Below are positions 5,745-30,699 of a DNA stretch of 32,000 nt, in pieces; the stretch's first letter is position 1, and each line of letters opens with the position of its first letter. Position numbers and translations under genes: made by a program. The DNA comes from Candidatus Lokiarchaeum ossiferum (GTDB taxonomy: Archaea > Asgardarchaeota > Lokiarchaeia > Sigyniarchaeales > Promethearchaeaceae): the NCBI GenBank assembly GCA_025839675.1, contig CP104013.1, positions 5,820,001 to 5,852,000 on the forward strand. Reading direction: 5' to 3'. The notes beneath the pieces are model-generated. The model made no database searches and had not been told where the DNA came from. It saw only the letters and a list, made by a program, of their open reading frames with translations.

Positions 5745-6569
5745 ATGATGAAAAATCAATGGATTCTTATTACTGGAGCTAGTACTGGAATAGGTCGAGT
5801 AGCTACTGAATTTCTCCAACAAAAAGGATATTCAATTTATGCTTGTGCTCGAAAAGAGGGTGACCTCCAAGATTTAGGAAGGATTCCGAATGTGATTCCC
5901 ATTAAACTTGATGTAACTAAGAACGAACAAATTGAACAAGCCTTTCAAGAAATATCTGATCGAAAAACTGGCTTATTTGGACTTATAAATAATGCGGGAA
6001 TTGTTCATGCTGGACCAACTATGGATCTTGATGTAGAGGAACTAAAACATCAATTTGATGTGAATTTTTTTGGTGTTCATCGGGTTACAAAGCAATTCTT
6101 TCCTCTAATCAAGAAATCCAAGGGTAAAATAGTTATGATTGGAAGTGGGGCCGGAATCATCGCTAATCCCTTTTTTGCACCTTATTCTAGTTCCAAATTT
6201 GCCTTGGAAGGTTATACGGATTCCTTAAGAAGAGAACTTTTGCTATATGGAATTCAAGTGGTGATAATTGAACCTGGGATGGTAAAAACACCTATTTGGG
6301 ATAAGGGTGAAGCTTTACTTGGAAATTATAATGGTGATATGCTTAAAAAAGAGGCTTCTGGGATCGGTTCTATGGCAGTTCAAACAGCCCGTGATATTGG
6401 GTTACCTCCAGAAAAAATAGCTTCGCTAATCTATAAAATTTTGACAAAAAAAAACCCGAAACCCCGATATGCTATTGTACCTAATTATTGGATGCGACAA
6501 CTCATGCTCAAAATGCCCACCAGAATGCTCGACCGCTTTATTTTAAAAAAAATGCAAAAATTTCAATAG
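5745..6569 (+). CDS. Short-chain dehydrogenase/reductase (classical SDR)
   Basis: TGASTGIGR cofactor motif (TGxxxGxG), NNAG, and a YSSSK catalytic Y-x-x-x-K. The ORF track starts at TTG 5685. The in-frame ATG at 5745 (MMKNQWILITGAS...) places the Rossmann motif at the normal distance from the N terminus. Confidence 0.85.
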   Translation: MMKNQWILITGASTGIGRVATEFLQQKGYSIYACARKEGDLQDLGRIPNVIPIKLDVTKNEQIEQAFQEISDRKTGLFGLINNAGIVHAGPTMDLDVEELKHQFDVNFFGVHRVTKQFFPLIKKSKGKIVMIGSGAGIIANPFFAPYSSSKFALEGYTDSLRRELLLYGIQVVIIEPGMVKTPIWDKGEALLGNYNGDMLKKEASGIGSMAVQTARDIGLPPEKIASLIYKILTKKNPKPRYAIVPNYWMRQLMLKMPTRMLDRFILKKMQKFQ

Positions 6570-6590
6570 GATACTCAAAGTTCTTCTATC

Positions 6591-6597
6591 TTTTTTT
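6591..6597 (+). terminator. Oligo-T tract (T7) 22 nt after the SDR stop
   Basis: tttttttgtg follows the TAG at 6567..6569. Oligo-T tracts are the established archaeal intrinsic termination signal. Confidence 0.4.
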
Positions 6598-6672
6598 GTG
6601 CGGATTATTTTTCTTTTTCGAATAGGAAGGTTTAGGCATATATTTAAGGAAAAAGCACACTTCCAATAGAAT

Positions 6673-7509
6673 ATGGTTAAAAAATCTAACTTTAATCTAA
6701 AGAAATATAAACTGGCTGTCATTACTGGAGCATCTAGCGGTATTGGGTTAGAATTTGCCAAACAATTTGCAGAAAATAAGATTAATTTAATTCTTATTGC
6801 ACGAAGAGTAGAAAAATTAGAAGAAATATGCTTAGATCTTGAAAAGCAATATCATATCAAAGCCACATACATTAAAGCGGATCTGACTCTCGAAAATGAT
6901 GTAAAATCTTGTATTAATCAACTGGATCAGACAAAAGGGATTGATATTCTTGTGAATGGGGCAGGTTTTGGGACTATTGGGGGATTTACTTCTGTGTCCT
7001 TAGAAGCCCATTTCCAAATGATTCAACTTCATATCAATGCCGTAGTTCATCTTTGTCACGCCATTTTACCTCAAATGCAACAGAATAATAAAGGGATAGT
7101 TATTAATATTGCATCTTTAGGTGCTTTTACTCCCACACGGGGAAATTCTGTATATAGTGCTTCTAAATCCTTTTTAATTACTTTTTTTGAAAATTTACAA
7201 AAAGAGTTGGATAAAACCGAGATTATTCTACAAGCGCTTTGTCCAGGCTTTACACGTACAGAATTCCATGAAGTTGGCCATTTCTCAGATTTTGACCGAT
7301 CTCGAATTCCAACTCGATTATGGATGACAGTTAAAGATGTTGTTGCGATTTCACTCGCTGCCTTAAAGAAAAAATCTCTTATTGTAATACCTGGAAGAAA
7401 AAATAAATGGATTTACCGCTTATACAGAAGCCCTATCGTTCAATTCTATATGAAGAAGAGAAGAAAAAAAGGATCAAAAAAAGGTTCAAAGAAAAATAGC
7501 ACAAAGTGA
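6673..7509 (+). CDS. Short-chain dehydrogenase/reductase (classical SDR) with Lys-rich C-terminal tail
   Basis: ITGASSGIGLEFAKQFAE (TGxxxGxG), NGAG, and YSASK (Y-x-x-x-K). The tail reads KKRRKKGSKKGSKKNSTK. Confidence 0.85.
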   Translation: MVKKSNFNLKKYKLAVITGASSGIGLEFAKQFAENKINLILIARRVEKLEEICLDLEKQYHIKATYIKADLTLENDVKSCINQLDQTKGIDILVNGAGFGTIGGFTSVSLEAHFQMIQLHINAVVHLCHAILPQMQQNNKGIVINIASLGAFTPTRGNSVYSASKSFLITFFENLQKELDKTEIILQALCPGFTRTEFHEVGHFSDFDRSRIPTRLWMTVKDVVAISLAALKKKSLIVIPGRKNKWIYRLYRSPIVQFYMKKRRKKGSKKGSKKNSTK

Positions 7510-7542
7510 AATAAGTTTTACTGAAATTATTCCATCAAGTTT

Positions 7543-8865
7543 TCAATCTTTACTAATTATTTCTCCATTTCCAATTTTTTGAACTAAATTTTTAATCAAT
7601 TCAACTGCATCCTCTAATTTTTCTGGTTTAACCAAATCTATCGTATCTTTTTTACTATGGATTATTTTAGTATCATTCTTTGCTAAGAAACAACAGACTT
7701 CTACCTTTTCTTTCTTGAAGGATGCATGATCACTATTTCCTCCTATCGGAGAGTTAAATTTTCTTGCTTCTATTTTGAGTTCTTCAGCAGATTTTTCAAT
7801 AAGTACATTTAATTTGGTGTTTATTGGTTTTTTCTTCAGAAGTCCTGCTTTATCTAGGTAAGCAAGTTCGGACCCGACCATGTCTACATTAATAGCATAA
7901 GAATTGTCTTTATTTTCAACAATCTCTTGTTTATGAGTCTTCACATAGCCCTTCGATCCAAATAAACCCCATTCTTCTGCTGTACACCAAATAAACTTTA
8001 GATGTACGTTTTTAGCGGGATGCTCTTTGAAAAATTTTGCTAAGCTTAAAAGTATTGCAGATCCGCTTCCATTATCGCATGCTCCGGGACTCGTATTTAT
8101 TCGTTTGGCAAACATATTAGATATAATAATGAGAATTACCAAAATGGTGCAAATTAAAATAATCACATTTAAAATTCTAATAGCAAGGTTGGTAGAAATA
8201 TTATCTCGGAAGAAATATACTAATGAAATGATGCTGGATACTAAAGTAAGTAACAAAATCAATAGAAATCCAAAAAACATTCCGATCATAAATTTAATGT
8301 AAAATTTGGGCAAGTTTGATGCAACGCTATCAGAATGGGCAGTTAAATAAATTATTGTGGGTTTTACTTCTTCATGCCTAATTGGAGGAAATTCACAGAT
8401 CACATTTTTCCCAATTGCGGATTTTCCTAAACATTTGAATTTGTCTGCTTTTAATTCTTTTCCAAAAAGCATAAGGCCCAGAAATGATATTGGGATCAAC
8501 AAAATTGAAAGGATTCCGTTGGTGGGTGGTATAATTCTGAGGGTAAAATTAATTAAAATTCCAAATAATCCTAATAGTATAAACATTAGTTTGCGTCCAT
8601 TAACTGAAGCTGTGGACCATTCGATGTTTTCTGTATACGCTTCTATGCTATTTTGACTTAAAAAATCCAGTAGAAATGTAGTCGTTTCTTCTTCTCCAAT
8701 TGTTCCCATCATTCTCGGTTGACTTAGGATACTTTTTTTTAAGATGTCGAAAGTAGGTTGATTAGATTGTGTCATTTTTTTCTTCTCTATCAAATTATTC
8801 TTTATACTTTGAGTACTTGGTGCTTTAATTATGTAAATCCTTGTTTTCCTTTTTACTATCATCAT
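7543..8865 (-). CDS. M28-family zinc metallopeptidase with membrane-spanning insertions
   Basis: M28 metal and catalytic motifs occur in order: LTAHSDSV, GACDNGSGSA, TAEEWGLFGS, NVDMVGS, NSDHASF. Hydrophobic hairpins are inserted before and between the first two motifs. An alternative start at ATG 8775 (MTQSNQPTF...) is possible. Confidence 0.8.
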   Translation of the reverse strand: MMIVKRKTRIYIIKAPSTQSIKNNLIEKKKMTQSNQPTFDILKKSILSQPRMMGTIGEEETTTFLLDFLSQNSIEAYTENIEWSTASVNGRKLMFILLGLFGILINFTLRIIPPTNGILSILLIPISFLGLMLFGKELKADKFKCLGKSAIGKNVICEFPPIRHEEVKPTIIYLTAHSDSVASNLPKFYIKFMIGMFFGFLLILLLTLVSSIISLVYFFRDNISTNLAIRILNVIILICTILVILIIISNMFAKRINTSPGACDNGSGSAILLSLAKFFKEHPAKNVHLKFIWCTAEEWGLFGSKGYVKTHKQEIVENKDNSYAINVDMVGSELAYLDKAGLLKKKPINTKLNVLIEKSAEELKIEARKFNSPIGGNSDHASFKKEKVEVCCFLAKNDTKIIHSKKDTIDLVKPEKLEDAVELIKNLVQKIGNGEIISKD

Positions 8866-20805: not shown

Positions 20806-21082
20806 ATAATTGTTGGAAAATGTTAAATGTAATATTTTTATATAAATATTACAATTATCAAATGATTAGTAAATCGATGATTTACTGAATACACTTCGAA
20901 GAGTCTTTTAAAAAAATGTAAAATTTTGATTTCAGATTCTAATCCAAAAACCCACTTAATAAATGCTTATTTTTTTTGGAAGCAGATAACTTCAATTTTA
21001 CTAAAAATTTTTTTACGTTCATAATCGTTAATAAATAGTGATTAATTAATTATCAAAATCGAAACGAAAATATGTGAATATT

Positions 21083-22297
21083 ATGTCAATTGATTGGGAA
21101 AAAGTTAAAGAGAAACCAGATAAGGCCTACAAAGTATTGGGGCAAACTCTATTAGATCAGAAACGGAAAATTGGTGATTTAGAGAGTAACTTGCAAAAGA
21201 CTTCATCTGCGTTAAATAAAAATATGACTGAACTTGATTCGGCAAACACAAAGATCTCGGGTTATGAAGGAAATATTGCTGAATTGAATACGTCGATTGC
21301 TGGAAAAGATAATGAAATTGCACAACTGAATGCTCAAATTGCTAAAACAAACCAAGAATATGCTAATCTCCATGCTGCTTATACACAAATTGGACAAGAG
21401 AAAGAATCTCTTGAACAAACAAAAGCCACATTAGAATCAGAAAAAACGGCTCTGGAATCTGCAAAAGCAGGTCTGGAAGCTGAGATTGAAGCTAAAAATG
21501 GTGAAATTGAATCAAAAAATAGTGAAATTTCTGGTAAAGCGGCAGAAATCGAAGGAAACTTGGCAAAAATCACAGAATTAAATACTACAATTGCAGAAAA
21601 AGATGCGCTTATCGCCGAATTAAATGCAATGATTAGTTCAAAAGATTCTGAAGCATCAAGTTCTCTTTCGGAAATGGCAAGTCGGGATGCAAAAATTGCT
21701 GATCTTAATGCTAAGCTCGAAGAAAAAGTTGGGGAAGTTGCTCAATTGAATTCAACTATTGAAGCTAAAGTGAATGAGATGAATGCAACCATGGGGTCCA
21801 AAGTGGAAGAATTCAACAATTATGTTGCCCAAAAAGATGAGATGATTGGTCAATTAAATACTAAAATTGATGAATTGAATACTTCTCTTCAACAAAAAAT
21901 CAGTGAAAGTGCAGAATATGCAAGTCGAATACAAACTATGGAACAATCCTTAGGTGAAAAAGATCAAAATTATTCTAGTCAATTAGCTGCTCGAGAACAA
22001 GAACTTGCTCAAAAAGAAGCTGCTCTCAACGAAAAACAAGCGAATTTAGAAGCTCTCCAGAATCAGCTCACTGAAAAAGATCAAAACATTGAAGAATATG
22101 AAGCCCGTATCAAAGAGTTAGAACCTCCAATTCCTGATGTTGGTGAATATCATATGGATACTCGTAGAGTTTGTCCTATGTGTAATGCTGTTGATATCAA
22201 AGATGTCGAAGATAAGACTAAAGTATTAAGTTATGTAGGACACGTGCCTCTTTATGCCAAGAAATCCGTTTGCAAGAAGTGCGGGTATGAATTCTAA
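21083..22297 (+). CDS. Long coiled-coil protein with C-terminal zinc ribbon
   Basis: About 340 aa of Ala/Glu/Gln/Leu/Asn-rich heptad-like sequence. The motif [IV]-x-[EQD]-L-N-x-x-[IL] recurs at least 8 times (IAELNTSI, IAQLNAQI, ITELNTTI, IAELNAMI, IADLNAKL, VAQLNSTI, IGQLNTKI, IDELNTSL). The protein ends in CPMC-x29-CKKCGYEF. The ATG at 21083 is preferred over the GTG at 21074. Confidence 0.8.
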   Translation: MSIDWEKVKEKPDKAYKVLGQTLLDQKRKIGDLESNLQKTSSALNKNMTELDSANTKISGYEGNIAELNTSIAGKDNEIAQLNAQIAKTNQEYANLHAAYTQIGQEKESLEQTKATLESEKTALESAKAGLEAEIEAKNGEIESKNSEISGKAAEIEGNLAKITELNTTIAEKDALIAELNAMISSKDSEASSSLSEMASRDAKIADLNAKLEEKVGEVAQLNSTIEAKVNEMNATMGSKVEEFNNYVAQKDEMIGQLNTKIDELNTSLQQKISESAEYASRIQTMEQSLGEKDQNYSSQLAAREQELAQKEAALNEKQANLEALQNQLTEKDQNIEEYEARIKELEPPIPDVGEYHMDTRRVCPMCNAVDIKDVEDKTKVLSYVGHVPLYAKKSVCKKCGYEF

Positions 22298-22392: not shown

Positions 22393-23169
22393 ATGCAAAT
22401 TGAAAGAATTACATCCTCAAATGAGAATCTCTTCTTCTCTTATGTTAAGGACAAAGAATTAGAGTTCTTTTTCTATATTATGGATTATAAACAATATCCT
22501 GAAAAAACTCAACTATTTATTGCAAAAAATAGTGATAACGAAATTGAAGGATTGTTTATCATTTGGCAAGAACACACAATACAGTGTCGTGGAAGTGAAG
22601 CAGCGGCAAGAACTTTTATTAAATATTTGAAACAAACAAAAGTGGATATTCATCAAATCACAGGGACTTTAGAACATCAATTTCTATTGAATGAATGTTT
22701 TCCAAACCCTAAAATGAAGTTCAACTTGTTCCGTATGACTTTGCGAAAGGGGCAGGAAAAATTAGATGAAAAATACAAAATTGTTGAGTTAAATGAAACT
22801 CATAAAGAGCCAATCGCTGCCTTATTACGGAAGAGTGATCCGGTGTATTTTGGAGATCAAACCGCTGATCGCATAATGATGGATGAAAATAGACCCTTTT
22901 TCGCCATAATGGATGGGGATAAGATGACTTCCATCTCAGGATTATGGATCGATGAGAGCATGGGTATTATTAATCTCATTGCTACAGATCCCAATTATCG
23001 CAGGCAACAAAGAGCCACTTCTATTGTTTCTTCAAGTGTAAGCTGGTTATTTAAGAAAACTGATAAAATTTTAATCCATGTCCGCTCTGAAAATTTCCCA
23101 GCAATAAATACTTATAAGAAAGTTGGATATCAAATTGCCTTTGAGTATATCGTTATGACAGTAAAATAA
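22393..23169 (+). CDS. GNAT-family N-acyltransferase (two-lobed; C-terminal lobe carries the acyl-CoA motif)
   Basis: The C-terminal half GLWIDESMGIINLIATDPNYRRQQRATSIVSSSVSWLF...IHVRSENFPAINTYKKVGYQ fits GNAT motifs A/B. The pyrophosphate loop is atypical (RRQQRAT instead of R/Q-x-x-G-x-G/A). Confidence 0.65.
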   Translation: MQIERITSSNENLFFSYVKDKELEFFFYIMDYKQYPEKTQLFIAKNSDNEIEGLFIIWQEHTIQCRGSEAAARTFIKYLKQTKVDIHQITGTLEHQFLLNECFPNPKMKFNLFRMTLRKGQEKLDEKYKIVELNETHKEPIAALLRKSDPVYFGDQTADRIMMDENRPFFAIMDGDKMTSISGLWIDESMGIINLIATDPNYRRQQRATSIVSSSVSWLFKKTDKILIHVRSENFPAINTYKKVGYQIAFEYIVMTVK

Positions 23170-23200
23170 GGGTATACGGGGATCTTCATAATCCTTATCC

Positions 23201-23209
23201 TTTTTTTTT
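23201..23209 (+). terminator. Oligo-T tract (T9, then T6 at 23212..23217) after the GNAT gene
   Basis: ccttatcc-ttttttttt-gg-tttttt-c. Confidence 0.5.
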
Positions 23210-23260
23210 GGTTTTTTCAATTAAATTTTTAATCTTTCATTCAATAAATATCCGTAAGCA

Positions 23261-24019
23261 ATGACCCAAAGTTCCGATACTGAAGATTTTCAACCGATTT
23301 TATCTGCAAATTATCCCGGAAAAAAAGGGACCCAGTTATTACTTTTTCTGGAATTTTGGTTAACGTTGACATTGATGTGTTTTATTAATCTTCCCTATTA
23401 TAGGTTGATGGTTAATCATTTATGGATGCTCATTTTGCTTCCACTATCCATTTATGGGCTTTTTTGGCAGTTTATGGGGTTAACCACTTTATTTTCAACC
23501 ATAATTTACAAAATCCTAATAAAAATTGAACCCCCAAAAGAGGGTATTTTTACTCTGACTAGTCGAGAATTCCAGTATTACAGCCTAAGGTTTTGGGTTT
23601 GTTATTACCTGTTGTATTTTGCACGTGCGATGCCGTTGCCTTGGGTAGATATGTTCATTTTTCCTATATTTGGCTCCAAAATTGGGCACAATGTTGTACT
23701 ATATGATAGTTGGATTGATCCAGAGTTCGTGAACATAGGAGGTTCAAGTATGATCAGTTTGAATACTCAGATTTTTTCCCACTGTATATATAAAGAGCGT
23801 TTTATTGTAAAACAAGTGGTCATAGAAAAAAATTCCATTGTTGGTGCTGGTGCGATTGTAGCACCAGGGACTTATATCGAAGAAGGGGCAATCTTGGGAG
23901 CAAATTGTTCGACTGCGATTGATCAAAAATTGCAATCCTACACGATTCATATCGGTTCTCCCGCAAATATTAGTCTCCCGATTAAACTCCATAATGGGGA
24001 AAATGAGGTGAAAAAATGA
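23261..24019 (+). CDS. Membrane-anchored left-handed beta-helix (hexapeptide-repeat) acyltransferase-like protein, paralog A
   Basis: N-terminal hydrophobic helices (LLLFLEFWLTLTLMCFINL, LWMLILLPLSIYGLFWQFMGL). A linker PPKEGIFTLTSREFQYYSLRFW follows. The LbH region is FGSKIGHNVVLYDSWIDPEFVNIGGSSMISLNTQIFSHC...VVIEKNSIVGAGAIVAPGTYIEEGAILGANC. Confidence 0.8.
   Translation: MTQSSDTEDFQPILSANYPGKKGTQLLLFLEFWLTLTLMCFINLPYYRLMVNHLWMLILLPLSIYGLFWQFMGLTTLFSTIIYKILIKIEPPKEGIFTLTSREFQYYSLRFWVCYYLLYFARAMPLPWVDMFIFPIFGSKIGHNVVLYDSWIDPEFVNIGGSSMISLNTQIFSHCIYKERFIVKQVVIEKNSIVGAGAIVAPGTYIEEGAILGANCSTAIDQKLQSYTIHIGSPANISLPIKLHNGENEVKK
24005..24010 (+). promoter_or_regulatory. Shine-Dalgarno GAGGTG 5 nt upstream of the paralog B start, inside the end of paralog A
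   Basis: aatGAGGTGaaaaaATGA. The ATG at 24016 overlaps the TGA at 24017..24019 of the upstream gene. Confidence 0.55.
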
Positions 24020-24828
24020 GCAGTCCTACAAGTACAAAACTTGCCCCCCCCACTTACGTAGATCCTCGAGTAAGAAGGAGAAATATTATTGGATATATAT
24101 TGCAAATATGGGTGTCTTTAATTCCTGGATCTTTTCTTCTCTATTGGTTTTATTATGATTATGTTCTAGAAATCTCTCCCTTTGCTACTGGAATTATGCA
24201 ATTTTCCTTTAGAAATTTGATTGAACAAGTTTGGATTATGCCGCTTGGAATTCTTTTTATCCTTACTCCCATAATTCTTCTTTTGGTTTATCTCGTCACC
24301 GTGATATGGGCTGCAGTCGTCACCAAACTCGTTTTATTAGGTTTGAATATCATTCGAAAGCCCATCGAAGGGGTATTTACTCGTAATCTGCAAGATCGAG
24401 ATTATGTTTATTGGAATAAACGAAATTTAGCTCGAGTATTTTTATTTTGGCTACTGCATTCAGTTCCTTTTACTTTTCTCAAAATAACCTTTTCTTACCG
24501 CTTTTTGGATGTAAAGGTGGGAAAAAAAGCCATTCTAAATCATTGCTGGATCGCTCCAGAATTTGTGAAAATTGGCAATAATGTAACCTTGGGGCAATCT
24601 GCTGGAATCTACAGTTTTCAATTTCAAGGAGATAAACTTCTCGTGGCTCAAGTAATCTTGGAGGACAATGTAATAGTTGGTCCTCAAACGGTCTTACTTC
24701 CAGGAACCATTGTGAATAAAGGCGCTATTATTGATGGTGGATCTTTCTCTCATCCTTTCACCGTTTTCGAAAAAGATGGGATATATCATGGGAATCCAGC
24801 AAAATTGGTTCGAAAATCACAAGATTGA
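24016..24828 (+). CDS. Membrane-anchored left-handed beta-helix (hexapeptide-repeat) protein, paralog B
   Basis: Same architecture as 23261..24019. TM helices come first, then RKPIEGVFTRNLQDRDYVYWNKRNL. The LbH region is LDVKVGKKAILNHCWIAPEFVKIGNNVTLGQSAGIYSFQ...VILEDNVIVGPQTVLLPGTIVNKGAIIDGGS. It overlaps the upstream gene by 4 bp. Confidence 0.8.
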   Translation: MSSPTSTKLAPPTYVDPRVRRRNIIGYILQIWVSLIPGSFLLYWFYYDYVLEISPFATGIMQFSFRNLIEQVWIMPLGILFILTPIILLLVYLVTVIWAAVVTKLVLLGLNIIRKPIEGVFTRNLQDRDYVYWNKRNLARVFLFWLLHSVPFTFLKITFSYRFLDVKVGKKAILNHCWIAPEFVKIGNNVTLGQSAGIYSFQFQGDKLLVAQVILEDNVIVGPQTVLLPGTIVNKGAIIDGGSFSHPFTVFEKDGIYHGNPAKLVRKSQD

Positions 24829-24833
24829 GTTTA

Positions 24834-24841
24834 TTTTTTTT
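24834..24841 (+). terminator. Oligo-T tract (T8) 6 nt after the paralog B stop
   Basis: tgagttta-tttttttt-cac. Confidence 0.45.
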
Positions 24842-24913
24842 CACTTAATGCTTTTCTTTATCAAATTTTGTAACACCAAACTTATTAAATTTCCACACTA
24901 AAAGATAACTCAA

Positions 24914-25747
24914 ATGAGTTTAATTGAAAAATGGAAAGATATTTGGGCAATTAAGGAAGAAGATCTTCCACGAGAAGAACGGATTTTCAAGAAGGGAAAT
25001 ATATTAATCATAATTATTGCATTCATTATTAGTGCTGGGATTGGTATGGGGATGCTGTATTTAATAAATCGATTGGAACCGATGTTATCTACATTTCCCG
25101 ACGGTATGTACCAAATGAACGCTTGGGCCGCCTCCTATTTCTTATATTTCTTCTGTATGGTTATCCCAATTATTGTCGCGAACATTTTCTATCAAAAAAC
25201 AAAGACTCCTTCCTATGGTTTTTCATCCTTTGCAGGATTTATCGTAGCAGCAATTATGTATTATTTTATTGCTCCCCGGTTTGCTCTTTATACGATTTAC
25301 AGTGTTTCTTTGGCAGTTCTTGGCAACATCCCGAGTCAAAAGGATTATAAATTAAAATGGTATCACATGACTTTTTATTTTGTGCTTGGAATTATTGCAT
25401 GTTATTTCAATATGATATATCAAGTGGAAAGTTATGATGTGTGGGTTTGGTTGCAATTTATTCACTTACATTTATTCGTAGTATTAATCGCATCCGTGAA
25501 AATTCGACAATGGAGTTATATGTATATGTTTGGATGGGCATTTATGGGATTACTTTTTATAATTTTCCCCAACTTTCCGATTTTTGGGCTGGTTGAGCCA
25601 CATAATGTTATCAGCAATCAATTAATTGGAGTGTACAATGTATTTGTTCCACCTTTGCTTGTTATCACCATTTTAACCTATTTCTTCAAAATCCAACGGA
25701 AAACTAACATAGGTTATGGTAAAAAACTTTCCAAGGAAAGTCCATAA
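24914..25747 (+). CDS. Polytopic integral membrane protein, unknown family
   Basis: 277 aa with about 7-8 hydrophobic segments rich in aromatic residues (for example ILIIIIAFIISAGIGMGMLYLI, AASYFLYFFCMVIPIIVANIFY, MTFYFVLGIIACYFNMIY). I recognise no motif. Confidence 0.65.
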   Translation: MSLIEKWKDIWAIKEEDLPREERIFKKGNILIIIIAFIISAGIGMGMLYLINRLEPMLSTFPDGMYQMNAWAASYFLYFFCMVIPIIVANIFYQKTKTPSYGFSSFAGFIVAAIMYYFIAPRFALYTIYSVSLAVLGNIPSQKDYKLKWYHMTFYFVLGIIACYFNMIYQVESYDVWVWLQFIHLHLFVVLIASVKIRQWSYMYMFGWAFMGLLFIIFPNFPIFGLVEPHNVISNQLIGVYNVFVPPLLVITILTYFFKIQRKTNIGYGKKLSKESP

Positions 25748-25775: not shown

Positions 25776-25797
25776 AATTAATTCTATTTGACCAGTG

Positions 25798-26943
25798 ATG
25801 AAGATGAAATCAAAAGCCAACGTATATCTTGCTTCCCCAGTATTCTACGAAATCTCTCAAAATCCTATGGTCTCACCAGACCTCCAAAAGAAAATTGAAG
25901 AATTATTTAATGAATTACGCGAAATCGCAGAAGTTACAATTTCTCCCACACGATTTCCATCAGAAAAGGAACTGATCGAAACAGTTCAAAATAATACCAT
26001 AGATTTTATCGGTTGTCATATATCCCACCCAATTACCTCTTTTATTACTCAAATTCCTTCAGTAAAAGGAATTGCCACCTCCACCATGGGATTCAATCAC
26101 ATTCATATGGAGCCTGGAGTTCTAGTAACTCATACTCCATCAGTGTTAGATAAAACGGTGGCTGATTTTACCATGGCTTTGATCCTTTCAACATTACGAA
26201 ATATCGTGCCATTACATAATGGACTATGGGCAGGGAATTGGATACCGGGTACTAAATGGGATCTTGATGATCAAATGAATCATTCTTTAGATAATATGGT
26301 GGTAGGAATTATCGGAATGGGAGAAATTGGGCGTGAAGTCGTGAAACGCCTTATTCCTTGGAATGTCCAAATTTTGTATTTTGATCTAAAACGAGATGAA
26401 ATTCTTGAAAATCAACTACCAAACCTTTATTACGAATCAAATATTGAAACCATCTTTGCTCAATCCGATGTTATCTCTCTTCATATCCCCTTAAATGCAC
26501 ATACAAAAGGTTATGTCAATGCTGCTTTATTGAAAAAAATGAAACCTCAAGCTCTTTTAGTTAATACTGCTCGTGGTGGAGTCGTTAATTTTGAAGATCT
26601 TCTTCAATTGTTAGAACTAAACGAAATTGCGATACATTTAGCGTTTGATGTCTATGAACCTGAACCAATTTCTCCAGAGATTTTGGAGAGATTTCATAAA
26701 ATTTCCAAACAACACCCCGAGTTACGTTTTGTATTTATTCCCCATAATGCGAGTTCAGACGCGAATACTCGGGCCAAAATGAGCATCATGATGCTTTCTG
26801 ACTTAATTTTACTGGCAAAAAGTAAGAATTTACAAGATTTAGCCCCGATCCACTTGATACCTCCCCAAAAAGATTTATTACAAAAAAATGCAATCCCGCC
26901 CTCGAAAATCAGAAATTATCGAATTTTTCAATGGTGGGAGTAA
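25798..26943 (+). CDS. D-isomer-specific 2-hydroxyacid dehydrogenase family, NAD-binding
   Basis: VGIIGMGEIGREVVKRL (GxGxxG), LVNTARGGVV (catalytic Arg context), DVYEPEP (Glu) and IPHNASS (His). It has a C-terminal extension of about 60 aa beyond the usual end. The ATG at 25798 directly follows the GTG at 25795. Confidence 0.85.
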   Translation: MKMKSKANVYLASPVFYEISQNPMVSPDLQKKIEELFNELREIAEVTISPTRFPSEKELIETVQNNTIDFIGCHISHPITSFITQIPSVKGIATSTMGFNHIHMEPGVLVTHTPSVLDKTVADFTMALILSTLRNIVPLHNGLWAGNWIPGTKWDLDDQMNHSLDNMVVGIIGMGEIGREVVKRLIPWNVQILYFDLKRDEILENQLPNLYYESNIETIFAQSDVISLHIPLNAHTKGYVNAALLKKMKPQALLVNTARGGVVNFEDLLQLLELNEIAIHLAFDVYEPEPISPEILERFHKISKQHPELRFVFIPHNASSDANTRAKMSIMMLSDLILLAKSKNLQDLAPIHLIPPQKDLLQKNAIPPSKIRNYRIFQWWE

Positions 26944-27017: not shown

Positions 27018-28814
27018 ATGCGAACTTTTTACTGCTTGATTAAAATGAATGGCATTAAATGGGTTTCACGATTATTCCTTAAGTACAAAGGACAAACATT
27101 TTATGTTGCTACCTTCGCTATAGTAGAGGTTCTTCTCTTCATGGTACCAATTTCAATCACCGCGGATGTCATTGAAATTGCCATTGAGGGAGGCGGATTA
27201 GCGGCAGCAAAAGGAAAAATTTGGTTACTTTTAGGATTGGCCATCATTCAAGCTCTAATCTTCTTTTCTATCTCTTTCATTAATGAAGTTTTAGCTCACC
27301 GCATTCAGACTGATATGACTCAAGAATTATTTGAATCACTACAATTTCGTTCCTTGACCTACCATAATACAAAGGATGTGGGAAACATCATGGCTCGAGC
27401 TACAGGAGATACTCGGACTATTAATATCGCGATATCTCCCGCTATTAGATTTCTCCTAGCAAGTTTTGTCATTTGGGTTGTAGCTTTTATTTTAACTCTA
27501 CAAATTCATTGGATTTTATTTATGTATTCCATTTTCATTTTTGTTCTCTTTGGAATCACGAGTTACTTCTATGTTCAAAATCTTATTCCAATTAGCTTAA
27601 AAACTCGTGAGTCTTTTGCTGAAATATCTGAGACCGTCAATAATAATTTGACCGGTGTGAAGGAATTAAAATCCTTTGTCGCGATTGGCTGGGCAAAACG
27701 AAAAATGGGAAAAAAATCTCAACAATTAATGCAAAATGAAATTCGTGAGGGCAATAAAATGGCGTGGTTTTATCCAATTTTAATAGTGACCTTTTATTGT
27801 GCTTCTATTTTAATAATTAGTATCTTTTTGAATTTTCAAGGTGGATATGGTATTGGTATTCCAGATATAGTGAGAATTGCAGGATCTGTTTCATTGTTAT
27901 TGGGGATGTCTGAAGAACTTGGTTGGTGTCTGGAATTTCTAATAAGAGGTAAAACTGCTGCTGATCGAATCTATTCTATTGTTTCTGAGAAGGATTCTGG
28001 AGCGTTTTCCGATGGGAAAAATATTTTTGATAATAAACCCTCTACTATTGAATTTAAGAATGTTGATTTTCGCTATCGGGAGGATTTACCCAAGGTATTA
28101 AAACAAATTTCTCTTAAAGTTGAAGAAAATCAAACTGTGGCTGTTGTGGGTGGTCCCGGATCTGGTAAATCTACTCTGACTCAATTGATTCAACGTTTAT
28201 ACATACCAACTGCTGGTGAAATTTTACTGGGTGGTATCCCAATTCAAGATTACACGAATGAATCCTTAAGGAAGAATATTTCAACAGTGGAACAAGATAT
28301 ATTCCTATTTAATTCCAGTGTTAAAGATAATATTCGGTATGGAAAACCAGATGCTTCGGATGAGGAAGTTTTCAAAGTTGCAAAAATTGCCGAAGCGGAT
28401 GAATTTATTAAAGAATTACCTAATGGATATGAAAATCTTATAGGTGAGGGAGGAGTACGATTGTCTGGAGGGCAAGCTCAACGTTTATCTATTGCTCGTG
28501 CTCTTCTCGTGAATCCCTCTATTCTTTTAATGGATGATGGAGCTTCTGCTTTGGATTCCCGAACCGAAGCTCGAATTCAGAAAGCAATAACGGAAATCCT
28601 AAAAACTCGAACTACTCTTATAACTACCCATCGATTGGCCATAATTGCTAAGGCTGATTTAGTTATTATTTTAGAGAAGGGAGAGATCGTAGGACTCGGG
28701 ACCCACGAATCATTAATTCGAACCAATTCCTATTATCGACGTCTCTTTGAAAAACATTACGATTTACCAAAACTTGAACAAACGACTAGTACGGAGGTGG
28801 CCATTGATGTCTGA
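27018..28814 (+). CDS. ABC exporter half-transporter (TMD-NBD), subunit with non-canonical catalytic residue
   Basis: Six-helix TMD. Walker A is GGPGSGKST, the signature is LSGGQAQR, and the H-loop is TTHRL. Walker B reads ILLMDD, so Asp replaces the catalytic Glu. An alternative start at ATG 27045 (MNGIKWVSRLFLKYKG) is possible. Confidence 0.9.
   Translation: MRTFYCLIKMNGIKWVSRLFLKYKGQTFYVATFAIVEVLLFMVPISITADVIEIAIEGGGLAAAKGKIWLLLGLAIIQALIFFSISFINEVLAHRIQTDMTQELFESLQFRSLTYHNTKDVGNIMARATGDTRTINIAISPAIRFLLASFVIWVVAFILTLQIHWILFMYSIFIFVLFGITSYFYVQNLIPISLKTRESFAEISETVNNNLTGVKELKSFVAIGWAKRKMGKKSQQLMQNEIREGNKMAWFYPILIVTFYCASILIISIFLNFQGGYGIGIPDIVRIAGSVSLLLGMSEELGWCLEFLIRGKTAADRIYSIVSEKDSGAFSDGKNIFDNKPSTIEFKNVDFRYREDLPKVLKQISLKVEENQTVAVVGGPGSGKSTLTQLIQRLYIPTAGEILLGGIPIQDYTNESLRKNISTVEQDIFLFNSSVKDNIRYGKPDASDEEVFKVAKIAEADEFIKELPNGYENLIGEGGVRLSGGQAQRLSIARALLVNPSILLMDDGASALDSRTEARIQKAITEILKTRTTLITTHRLAIIAKADLVIILEKGEIVGLGTHESLIRTNSYYRRLFEKHYDLPKLEQTTSTEVAIDV
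28793..28799 (+). promoter_or_regulatory. Shine-Dalgarno GGAGGTG 7 nt upstream of the second ABC gene start
   Basis: acGGAGGTGgccattgATGtcTGA. The ATG at 28807 overlaps the end of the upstream gene (stop 28812..28814). Confidence 0.55.
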
Positions 28815-30699
28815 AACTAATTATGAACCAAAATCTACCAACAAATCTAAAGTTAAGGCTAAAAAGATAGCTAATACTAACGCTAAAATTAAAGAAAAAG
28901 CTAAGACAAAAACCGCTAAAAGATCGGATCGTGAGCTTTTGTCATTTCTTTGGAGTTATATCCGACCTTATAAGAAAGAATACATTCAAGTTTCTGCCTT
29001 ACTTCTTTTGAATGTTGCCTTTGCTACCTTGGCTCCGATTTTCTTTAGAAACGCGTTGGATATCCTAGATAATTTAGAAATTGTTCGGTCAATTTCCATT
29101 ATACTTCCTTCTTTGATTATCTATTTAATCCTGATGATTGCAAAGTGGTTTGCTGAAGTGTTCCGGAATGTTTTCCGTGTTCAATTGAATTCTAAAGTGA
29201 CCAAAGATTTACGGGAAGATATTTTTCAAAGTATTTTAGATAACAAAATGGGTTTCTTTGATCATAATGAATCAGGTGTACTAACCAGCCGAATAACGAA
29301 TGATATTGCTGAATTGAGTGAAACTAGTCAGCGATTTGTAGAATTGTTGACCATGTTTGTTCGATTGATAGTAATCGTGGGGATTTTTCTATCATATTCT
29401 CCCGTTTTAACCTTTGTATCCATTGTATTTCTTCCCTTTTTCTTTCTCTTTTCAGTTTTAATTCGTAAGTATATGCGACACGCGGAAAAAACATGGAGGA
29501 AAAATTTTGCTAATGTAAATCAGCGCTTTAGTGAAACTATGCGTTCTATTGCCATTAGTAAAGCATTTGCGCGGGAAGAAGAAAATATTCGCAATTTTAC
29601 CCAACTCAATGAACAAACCTACAAATCTTCTATTAAACGAGGTTTAGCTATTTTTCTTATGGGTCCCATTGGTGATTTCTTCCGCCATGTTTTGCTAATT
29701 ATTATTTTATTGGTGGGAACCATGCAAAATGAAGCTGGTAATCTCTCTGTGGCGACTTTTTATTTCTTCATCTTCTTATTGGATTATTACTATTATCCGG
29801 TGATGGGGTTGGCACGCAATTACAGTCGATTTCAAGCACTCTTTGCTAATCTTGAAAAAATCTTGGAAATAACCTCTAACATTGAAGTCAAAGAAATTAA
29901 TAATGCTTCAGTTCCAATTTCTGAACTTAGAGGGGATATTAAATTTGAACATGTAAATTTTGCTTATACGGAAGAAAAACAAATTCTCCAAGACATATCA
30001 TTTCATGTCAAATCCGGTCAACGAGTTGCCTTAGTGGGGAATACTGGATCGGGTAAAACCACAATTGCTTCTCTTTTAATGCGTTTTTATGATATACAAG
30101 AAGGACAAATATTAATTGATGATCATCCGATCCAAGATTATGATATTTCTTCTTTACGGAATGCGATAGGTCTGGTAAGTCAGCGAGTACTGTTATTCAA
30201 AGGAACTATACGCGAAAATTTATTGCTGGCCTATCCTGAGGCTACCGATGACCATTTGTGGAGTGCTTTAGATGCTGTTCAAGCCCGAGAATTTATTGAA
30301 TTGTTGCCCGATGGATTAGATTCGAAAGTATCCGATGGGGGGAATAACTTATCTGCTGGTCAACGTCAAATGATCACTTTTGCCCGTGTTTTACTTGGAA
30401 ATCCCCAAATGATCATCCTTGATGAGGCCACATCTGCAGTCGATCTTTATACCGAATCCAAAATTCAAGATTCTACCGATCTCCTCTTAAAGGGAAGAAC
30501 TAGTATTGTAATTGCTCATCGTTTGACCACTATTTTAAAAAGTGATCTCATAATTGTCTTAGAAGATGGAATGTTGCGTCAATTTGGGACCCATAATGAG
30601 TTAATGGCTGTAGATGGCCCCTATCAAGAAATGTATCAGTTATATTTCAAAACTCAATCCGCCAAGTATTTAGAAAATATTAAAACGGCTGCGAGCTAA
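28807..30699 (+). CDS. ABC exporter half-transporter (TMD-NBD), canonical catalytic subunit with Lys-rich N-terminal extension
   Basis: Walker A is GNTGSGKTT, Walker B is MIILDEATSAVD with a canonical Glu, and the H-loop is IAHRL. The signature is LSAGQRQM, which is non-canonical. The N terminus reads MSETNYEPKSTNKSKVKAKKIANTNAKIKEKAKTKTAKRS. The ORF-track start (TTG 28747) lies inside the upstream gene, so I prefer the ATG at 28807 with its SD. Confidence 0.9.
   Translation: MSETNYEPKSTNKSKVKAKKIANTNAKIKEKAKTKTAKRSDRELLSFLWSYIRPYKKEYIQVSALLLLNVAFATLAPIFFRNALDILDNLEIVRSISIILPSLIIYLILMIAKWFAEVFRNVFRVQLNSKVTKDLREDIFQSILDNKMGFFDHNESGVLTSRITNDIAELSETSQRFVELLTMFVRLIVIVGIFLSYSPVLTFVSIVFLPFFFLFSVLIRKYMRHAEKTWRKNFANVNQRFSETMRSIAISKAFAREEENIRNFTQLNEQTYKSSIKRGLAIFLMGPIGDFFRHVLLIIILLVGTMQNEAGNLSVATFYFFIFLLDYYYYPVMGLARNYSRFQALFANLEKILEITSNIEVKEINNASVPISELRGDIKFEHVNFAYTEEKQILQDISFHVKSGQRVALVGNTGSGKTTIASLLMRFYDIQEGQILIDDHPIQDYDISSLRNAIGLVSQRVLLFKGTIRENLLLAYPEATDDHLWSALDAVQAREFIELLPDGLDSKVSDGGNNLSAGQRQMITFARVLLGNPQMIILDEATSAVDLYTESKIQDSTDLLLKGRTSIVIAHRLTTILKSDLIIVLEDGMLRQFGTHNELMAVDGPYQEMYQLYFKTQSAKYLENIKTAAS

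Follow-up and report, generated by a model that had tools for sequence, protein, structure and literature searches.

What is done by two membrane-anchored, acyltransferase-like proteins that Asgard archaea encode side by side, and how are they related to the terminal domain of synthetases that polymerise amino acids? This question is raised by a locus of Candidatus Lokiarchaeum ossiferum. The window analysed comprises 32,000 nucleotides (assembly GCA_025839675.1, contig CP104013.1, positions 5,820,001 to 5,852,000 of the forward strand), and the coordinates given for this organism refer to it. It contains the adjacent genes A and B (Table 1), whose products are named only 'hypothetical' or 'acyltransferase' in the databases, and no account of these Asgard proteins was found in the literature. 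A first-pass annotation, made from the sequence alone, had likened the two proteins to the terminal modules of the synthetase for epsilon-poly-L-lysine (Pls) and of the PosA-type nonribosomal peptide synthetases (NRPSs). Our analysis leads to a related reading, which we consider to have about an even chance of being right: A and B would be the subunits of a membrane-embedded, heteromeric left-handed beta-helix (LbH) acyltransferase, a distant and free-standing relative of Pls/PosA.

An obligate and asymmetric gene pair

The distribution of the pair was determined by scanning the contigs of a single genome for each species with only the A family as the query, and the 77 loci returned were analysed by open reading frame (ORF) calling and hidden Markov models (HMMs). 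All of these loci belong to Asgard archaea (Loki-, Hermod-, Thor- and Hodarchaeota labels under Promethearchaeota), and the pair is present in each of the 77 species-level genomes given by the scan. Wherever a locus holds both genes, they are adjacent and on the same strand (77/77), mostly with a spacing of -4 to +7 nucleotides, and this pairing is far above chance. One A-B locus was found per genome, with an identity of 36-67 % across the Asgard lineages; for B, the identity across orthologs is 39-72 %. Conservation this wide at a single locus is more indicative of a housekeeping role at the membrane than of an antimicrobial polymer.

The two genes are closely coupled. In L. ossiferum, the ATGA at 24016-24019 is common to the stop codon of A and the start codon of B, and the GAGGTG at 24005-24010, located within A and 6-11 nucleotides ahead of the B start, fits the Shine-Dalgarno consensus. 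Of 61 distinct orthologous loci, 46 likewise carry a Shine-Dalgarno-like GGAGG 5' of the B start. T-runs flank the pair, including one at 24832-24842 behind the B stop codon, and together with the A/T-rich stretch ahead of A they suggest that the two genes are transcribed as one unit, in which the T-runs would act as archaeal terminators and the A/T box as the promoter.

A and B are paralogs with 26 % identity across approximately 200 residues (BLASTP, E-value 1e-22), and they differ consistently at a central position. The column of His174 of A is occupied by His in 81 of 81 orthologs. In the 77 orthologs of B, the same column holds Phe (70), Tyr (3), Ser (2), Cys (1) or His (1) and is therefore Phe or Tyr in 73 cases, including Phe201 of L. 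ossiferum B. Five further positions, in A numbering, distinguish the families: position 122 is Arg in A and Ala or Ser in B, position 130 is Asp in A and Lys or Arg in B, which is a charge reversal, position 148 is Tyr in A and Asp or Asn in B, position 153 is Asp in A and Ser in B, and position 230 is His in A and Tyr in B. Since B has its own family-specific fixed positions, it is a constrained partner rather than a decaying copy.

A membrane hairpin joined to a left-handed beta-helix

Both proteins share one layout, in which a membrane hairpin of two helices is joined through a helical linker to an LbH. For A, this was derived from hydropathy and from an AlphaFold2 model with a predicted local distance difference test (pLDDT) score of 86.6 and a predicted template modelling (pTM) score of 0.79. 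In the model, two long membrane helices (residues 24-52 and 54-89) are followed by a strand (95-98) that corresponds to the conserved 'EGIF' within the linker motif IEPPKEGIF, by a linker helix (102-123) and two short helices (129-137), and by the LbH, which spans residues 140-240 approximately. A hairpin at 174-183 (strands 174-177 and 180-183) interrupts the LbH and starts at His174, which belongs to an invariant Ser-His (Ser173-His174). The Pfam model Hexapep (PF00132) matches A with 29.4 bits and B with 29.3 bits. Both scores are above the gathering threshold of 27, which supports placing A and B in the hexapeptide/LbH acyltransferase superfamily; nothing else was found in the Pfam search of the two proteins. 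The LbH is predicted to be cytoplasmic by the positive-inside rule, because basic residues are found on both the N- and the C-terminal flank of the membrane hairpin.

A feature of B is its N-terminal tail, MSSPTSTKLAPPTYVDPRVRRR, which is very strongly conserved and is among the most conserved parts of B across Asgard archaea, with distant lineages carrying MFQPASLKGDSPTPIDERIRNKY instead. The tail may serve as a peptide for docking or regulation. The equivalent tail of P0073, a three-unit relative described below, is modelled as disordered (pLDDT <50).

Much of what the first-pass annotation had stated about the pair is confirmed by these results. This applies to the ATGA overlap with a Shine-Dalgarno motif inside the first gene, to the paralogy, and to the common layout of N-terminal transmembrane helices, conserved linker and beta-helix. 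It also applies to the conservation of the genes as a pair and of the His/Phe asymmetry, both of which had been named there as points on which the proposal depended. Every peptide string cited in it was found in A/B.

Remote relationship to the Pls/PosA terminal domain

The best NCBIfam match of both proteins is TIGR02353, with 41.8 bits (E-value 4.7e-11) for A and 48.4 bits (E-value 4.5e-13) for B. This is indeed the Pls/PosA terminal domain, as suggested in the first-pass annotation. Nevertheless, the scores amount to roughly one tenth of the 423 bits set as the curated cutoff, and A and B are not TIGR02353 members.

The relationship is also visible in the opposite direction. A profile built from 44 A and B sequences was searched against 1.84 billion representative sequences and retrieved 152 proteins with an E-value of at most 1e-30, comprising single-unit, two-unit and three-unit proteins without an NRPS domain as well as proteins with more than 1000 amino acids. 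Around 43 of the best 150 belong to the last class, each with three matched stretches. Those that were checked are true Pls/PosA synthetases with adenylation and carrier domains, and P0139 and P0143 reach 487 and 603 bits on TIGR02353, which makes them true members. Each of the three Pls units aligns to the A/B profile, and hhalign comparisons of the A and B families with Pls units 1, 2 and 3 gave probabilities of 98.3-99.7 %. The local alignments with Pls cover positions 90-244 of A, starting from the linker, and positions 20-267 of B, starting from the membrane helices (unit 3), whereas alignments with soluble acetyltransferases begin only at the LbH, at profile position 130-141 approximately.

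The region of membrane helices and linker was also compared by itself. Here, hhalign gave 99.3 % for A against B, 99.4-99.7 % for A and B against a second Asgard system described below, and 94 % (A) and 66 % (B) against bacterial free-standing three-unit proteins, which in turn reach 68 % against Pls.

The published description of an AlphaFold model of the PosA domain comprises three pairs of bent membrane helices in pseudo-threefold packing; behind each pair come two helices and a strand, and then a five-turn LbH that is broken by two strands (PMC10522769). The AlphaFold2 model of A matches this unit; the comparison was made by description.

No Pls-type structure was present in the searched copy of the PDB, the sources searched gave neither a solved structure nor defined catalytic residues for the Pls/PosA terminal domain, and the literature search returned nothing relevant on a cryo-electron microscopy structure of Pls, on TIGR02353 or on free-standing archaeal units. 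The published PosA survey took in only proteins of 1100-1800 amino acids, and free-standing units are not mentioned in it.

On this basis, we read A and B as distant members of the same broad superfamily of membrane-LbH units as the Pls/PosA domain. Shared features are the helix pair, the linker helices with a strand, and the five-turn LbH broken by a hairpin. However, in Pls/PosA, three units with six membrane helices follow the adenylation and thiolation domains within a single chain, whereas A and B are two separate single-unit proteins with no adenylation or thiolation domain nearby. The phyletic patterns differ as well, A/B being conserved across Asgard archaea and Pls/PosA being sporadic. 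Thus, of the proposed assignment to the Pls/PosA-type modules, the remote homology and the unit layout hold, but membership of the family does not (42-48 bits against 423).

One histidine-bearing unit per three

The His that is conserved in the A family aligns with the His in 'YTAYHPID' of the maltose O-acetyltransferase of C. difficile, the general base of the Maa/LacA class. It also falls on the column of a conserved His in unit 3 of Pls. This column was read in 10 Pls/PosA synthetases and in other relatives by aligning all units to the A/B profile. In the synthetases, unit 3 has the His in all ten cases ('QTHLFEDR'), unit 1 in two and unit 2 never. In the free-standing three-unit proteins P0073 (Asgard), P0121 and P0108, the latter being fused to a short-chain dehydrogenase, only unit 2 has it. 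Counted unit by unit, these columns indicate that one His-bearing unit per three is the usual pattern, and A/B would repeat it with A as the unit that bears the His on the acetyltransferase catalytic column.

It was considered whether the His-bearing units, namely A, those of the other systems and unit 3 of Pls, are orthologs. This was rejected because the scores are similar across units, so the position of the His does not mark an orthologous lineage. His174 is a putative catalytic base of A, and B a putative non-catalytic partner subunit.

Fused and free-standing relatives

When P0073 was used as the query, two-unit proteins (approximately 520-630 amino acids) forming a large Asgard family were retrieved, along with a few three-unit ones (approximately 790-805 amino acids, e.g. 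P0073, P0229 and P0268). This second Asgard system, paralogous to A/B, is very widespread, with more than 120 clusters, and its members are annotated only as hypothetical proteins or acyltransferases. Genes for zf-AN1 proteins, an M50-like protease and S-adenosylmethionine synthetase are found in its neighbourhood. At locus L083, a two-unit gene is followed by a complete single-unit ORF, and at the syntenic locus L084 a three-unit fusion is found (Table 1). The second system shows that the units are interchangeable as fused or split forms. AlphaFold2 predicts the three-unit P0073 with confidence as one body (pLDDT 82.4, pTM 0.83). Within this protein, unit 2 has the His, whereas units 1 and 3 are alike and are without it.

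The second system occurs in the same organisms as A/B, has homologous N-terminal regions and likewise has one His-bearing unit per set. Its first unit starts with MSTPVS..., similar to the MSSPTS of the B tail. It differs in that its units are fused, in that its full set is a U1-U2 part plus a distinct U3, and in its location at another locus than A-B. Clear orthology to A or B is seen for none of its units.

Further three-unit modules without adenylation domains were detected outside Asgard archaea in P0108 (960 amino acids), P0121 (680 amino acids) and P0153 (809 amino acids), one of which is free-standing on a 1.3-Mb contig. In P0108, the module is located behind an N-terminal short-chain dehydrogenase. 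As these proteins lack adenylation domains, their sequences indicate that the three-unit module is not exclusive to NRPSs. One of the three is annotated in the chytrid fungus Obelidium mucronatum.

Genomic neighbourhood

The coordinates of the pair, its neighbours and the compared loci are listed in Table 1.

Table 1. Features of the A-B locus in the L. ossiferum window and of compared Asgard loci
Feature	Location	Position	Strand	Description
Coiled-coil neighbour (CC)	Window	21074..22297	+	C-terminal CxxC...CxxC zinc ribbon, conserved N-terminal motif
GNAT-family acetyltransferase	Window	22393..23169	+	Between the CC gene and A, L. ossiferum only
Intergenic region 5' of A	Window	23178..23260	+	Oligo-T runs past the GNAT stop; A/T-rich stretch ahead of the A start
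Gene A (NEF87_004943)	Window	23261..24019	+	252 amino acids; ORF and exact protein match
Coupling junction	Window	24005..24019	+	GAGGTG, then stop/start overlap ATGA
Gene B (NEF87_004944)	Window	24016..24828	+	270 amino acids; ORF and exact protein match
N-terminal tail of B	Window	24016..24084	+	First 23 codons of B; predicted cytoplasmic
Membrane protein M	Window	24914..25747	+	277 amino acids, multi-pass
2-hydroxyacid dehydrogenase	Window	25795..26943		Glyoxylate reductase-like; follows M
Two adjacent ATP-binding cassette (ABC) exporter genes	Window	27018..30699	+	Transmembrane domain, then ATPase domain in each
Tandem calcineurin-like phosphoesterase	L014	9608..11209		Soluble, 531 amino acids; also in 57 other loci
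Two-unit gene, second Asgard system	L083 (CP070831)	6001..7575		
Single-unit ORF, second Asgard system	L083 (CP070831)	7612..8346		Complete; follows the two-unit gene
Three-unit fusion, second Asgard system	L084	6001..8370		789 amino acids; syntenic with L083

The sole neighbour conserved throughout the loci is the coiled-coil gene. In 75 loci it is the gene immediately upstream of A, divergently in 62 and co-directionally in 13. Its product has the N-terminal motif IDWxKxExKPDK...LLDxRxKxxDLE and the zinc ribbon CPMC...KVLSYVGHxPxYAKKxxCKKCGYEF, and the length of its coiled coil varies widely (158-408 amino acids). Family searches with it returned only coiled-coil noise and weak zinc-ribbon matches. 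The GNAT gene, whose best NCBIfam matches are weak (RimI-like and beta-lysine N-acetyltransferase-like), was tested as a part of the conserved neighbourhood and rejected, since a relative was found in one other locus only and is placed elsewhere there; it appears to be a local insertion.

Downstream of B, M and the 2-hydroxyacid dehydrogenase are restricted to L. ossiferum and its close relatives among the Lokiarchaeales. M matches no Pfam or NCBIfam family. In 58 more distant loci, representing most Asgard genomes outside Lokiarchaeales, the start of a gene for a tandem calcineurin-like phosphoesterase overlaps the stop of B, and a ThiS/Urm1-like gene (93 amino acids) comes next. The phosphoesterase may be part of the same operon as A-B. 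The possibility that M is a detached piece of this protein was rejected, as there is no similarity between them. The ORFs of the two ABC exporter genes downstream of the cluster overlap at 28747..28814, and these genes are not conserved beside A-B elsewhere.

No adenylation- or carrier-like ORF was found within 8 kb of the pair in 82 loci, which extends to the other loci the first-pass observation that the modules are free-standing and have no adenylation or thiolation domain in the window. Likewise, neither glycosyltransferase or polysaccharide genes nor transporter or respiratory genes are conserved near A-B.

Proposed mechanism and alternative explanations

LbH enzymes are trimers with active sites at the subunit interfaces, and for this reason A and B are proposed to assemble as one heterotrimer. 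Its composition would most likely be A1B2, by analogy with P0073 and its two similar units without the His and one unit with it. The modelling of this three-unit relative as one body gives indirect support to a trimeric assembly. A would provide the single general base, His174, at the interface with B and near the membrane-proximal end of the LbH, and B would complete the trimer and a six-helix membrane bundle. The donor would be a cytoplasmic thioester, most probably acyl-coenzyme A, the latter being favoured by the lack of a carrier or adenylation enzyme beside the pair. Transfer of the acyl group would be to a hydroxyl or amine of a membrane-bound or membrane-crossing acceptor, for which a lipid head group, a lipid-linked glycan and an exported polymer are candidates.

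Several points weigh against this proposal. The similarity to Pls resides mainly in the LbH: HMMs of the membrane helices and linker alone scored Pls synthetases no better than decoys, and hhalign gave just 6-29 % probability for this region against Pls, which is why an independent homology of the membrane region to Pls is not claimed. Moreover, TIGR02353 leads the ordinary acetyltransferase model NF058585 by only 3-5 bits. The profile comparison of Pls/PosA-type modules with O-acetyltransferases that the first-pass annotation had suggested thus gives a mixed outcome, with TIGR02353 as the best match but with this small lead and no significance of the membrane-linker region alone. In addition, the stoichiometry A1B2 is drawn by analogy alone, no test of the unit-3 His of Pls as a catalytic residue was found in the accessible literature, and the conserved neighbours, that is the coiled-coil gene and, in most lineages, the metallophosphoesterase, give no clue to the substrate.

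In another explanation, A and B are ordinary membrane-tethered sugar, glycan or lipid O-acetyltransferases that happen to be duplicated, with A as a homotrimer in the manner of maltose O-acetyltransferase or WcaF, B as a separate enzyme or decayed copy and a generic beta-helix likeness to Pls. The scores of NF058585 and WcaF are nearly equal to that of TIGR02353, the region N-terminal to the LbH has no independent significant match to Pls, and maltose and galactoside O-acetyltransferases are the solved structures that the A model matches best. Maa/LacA and WcaF/NodL share with A the LbH fold and a loop or hairpin insertion with a His aligned to that of A. They are, however, soluble homotrimers with three identical active sites, whereas A and B have membrane hairpins and a distinct conserved linker (IEPPKEGxF, RFW, ARAMPLPWVD) and form an obligate asymmetric pair. 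NF058585, the heptaprenylglyceryl phosphate O-acetyltransferase (YvoF-type, Bacillus), is the second-best NCBIfam match (E-value 6e-10 for A and 3e-11 for B), but it scores 39-43 bits against a cutoff of 300, its match covers the LbH only, and with 172 positions the model is too short for the membrane hairpin. As heptaprenylglyceryl phosphate O-acetyltransferase acetylates an archaeal-type ether lipid, a lipid acceptor is conceivable for A/B by analogy. A separate or decayed B does not agree with its conservation, its own invariant residues and hyper-conserved N-terminus, nor with the fact that it is translationally coupled and never found apart from A in the 77 loci. Furthermore, only the alignments with Pls reach the linker and membrane helices, the relatives occur as two- and three-unit fusions, unlike soluble homotrimeric acetyltransferases, and the surroundings hold no conserved glycosyltransferase or polysaccharide genes. 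We therefore regard this explanation as unlikely, though deserving serious attention.

A second possibility is that the pair is a Pls-like polymerase acting in trans on an aminoacyl thioester supplied by an adenylation-thiolation protein whose gene lies elsewhere in the genome. The homology to the Pls units and the matching pattern of one His per trimer are compatible with this, full-length synthetases occur in some archaea according to the published PosA survey, and the unit set appears portable, since it is joined to differing N-terminal modules (mostly adenylation-thiolation, but a short-chain dehydrogenase in P0108). Even so, the absence of adenylation and carrier ORFs within 8 kb of the pair in any of the 82 loci, conserved neighbours that are unrelated to amino-acid activation, and an Asgard-wide conservation at one locus that fits a core role more readily than a secondary metabolite make it very improbable, and the polymerisation of amino acids by the pair is not supported. 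Finally, the proteins could have a non-enzymatic structural or transport role, in which an LbH trimer with a non-catalytic His caps a six-helix bundle. The best solved match of the B profile is a carbonic anhydrase entry (3r1w, 42.5 bits), with the gamma-carbonic-anhydrase-like subunits of mitochondrial complex I among the next matches, and in plants these subunits form a heterotrimer with degenerate members. Against such a role, the Ser-His of A is invariant and falls on the catalytic column of the acetyltransferases, the three His residues that bind zinc in gamma-carbonic anhydrases are not apparent in the pair (no formal test was made), and conserved transporter or respiratory genes are lacking nearby. 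Of the explanations weighed here, we hold this one to be the least probable, with hardly more than a slight chance.

Implications

Under the preferred reading of a heteromeric membrane acyltransferase, A and B represent a split, NRPS-independent and asymmetric version of the Pls/PosA-type membrane LbH module that is distributed Asgard-wide. A more far-reaching idea, which we put forward tentatively and regard as rather unlikely in its entirety, is that the Pls/PosA domain is the fused form, captured by NRPSs, of membrane LbH heterotrimers with only one catalytic subunit, a class that would be both older and wider. Asgard archaea would then have retained the unfused form, as A+B and as the second three-unit system, in core, near-universal genes that build or acylate a component of the envelope or membrane, possibly iteratively through the six-helix bundle.

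If the preferred reading is true, the split version with approximately 250 amino acids per subunit would be a tractable model for the action of the Pls/PosA domain. It would also mean that catalytic and non-catalytic labour is divided within a small pair and that the module is not confined to NRPSs. For the organisms themselves, the pair is a candidate for a lineage-typical modification of the membrane or envelope in the closest archaeal relatives of eukaryotes.

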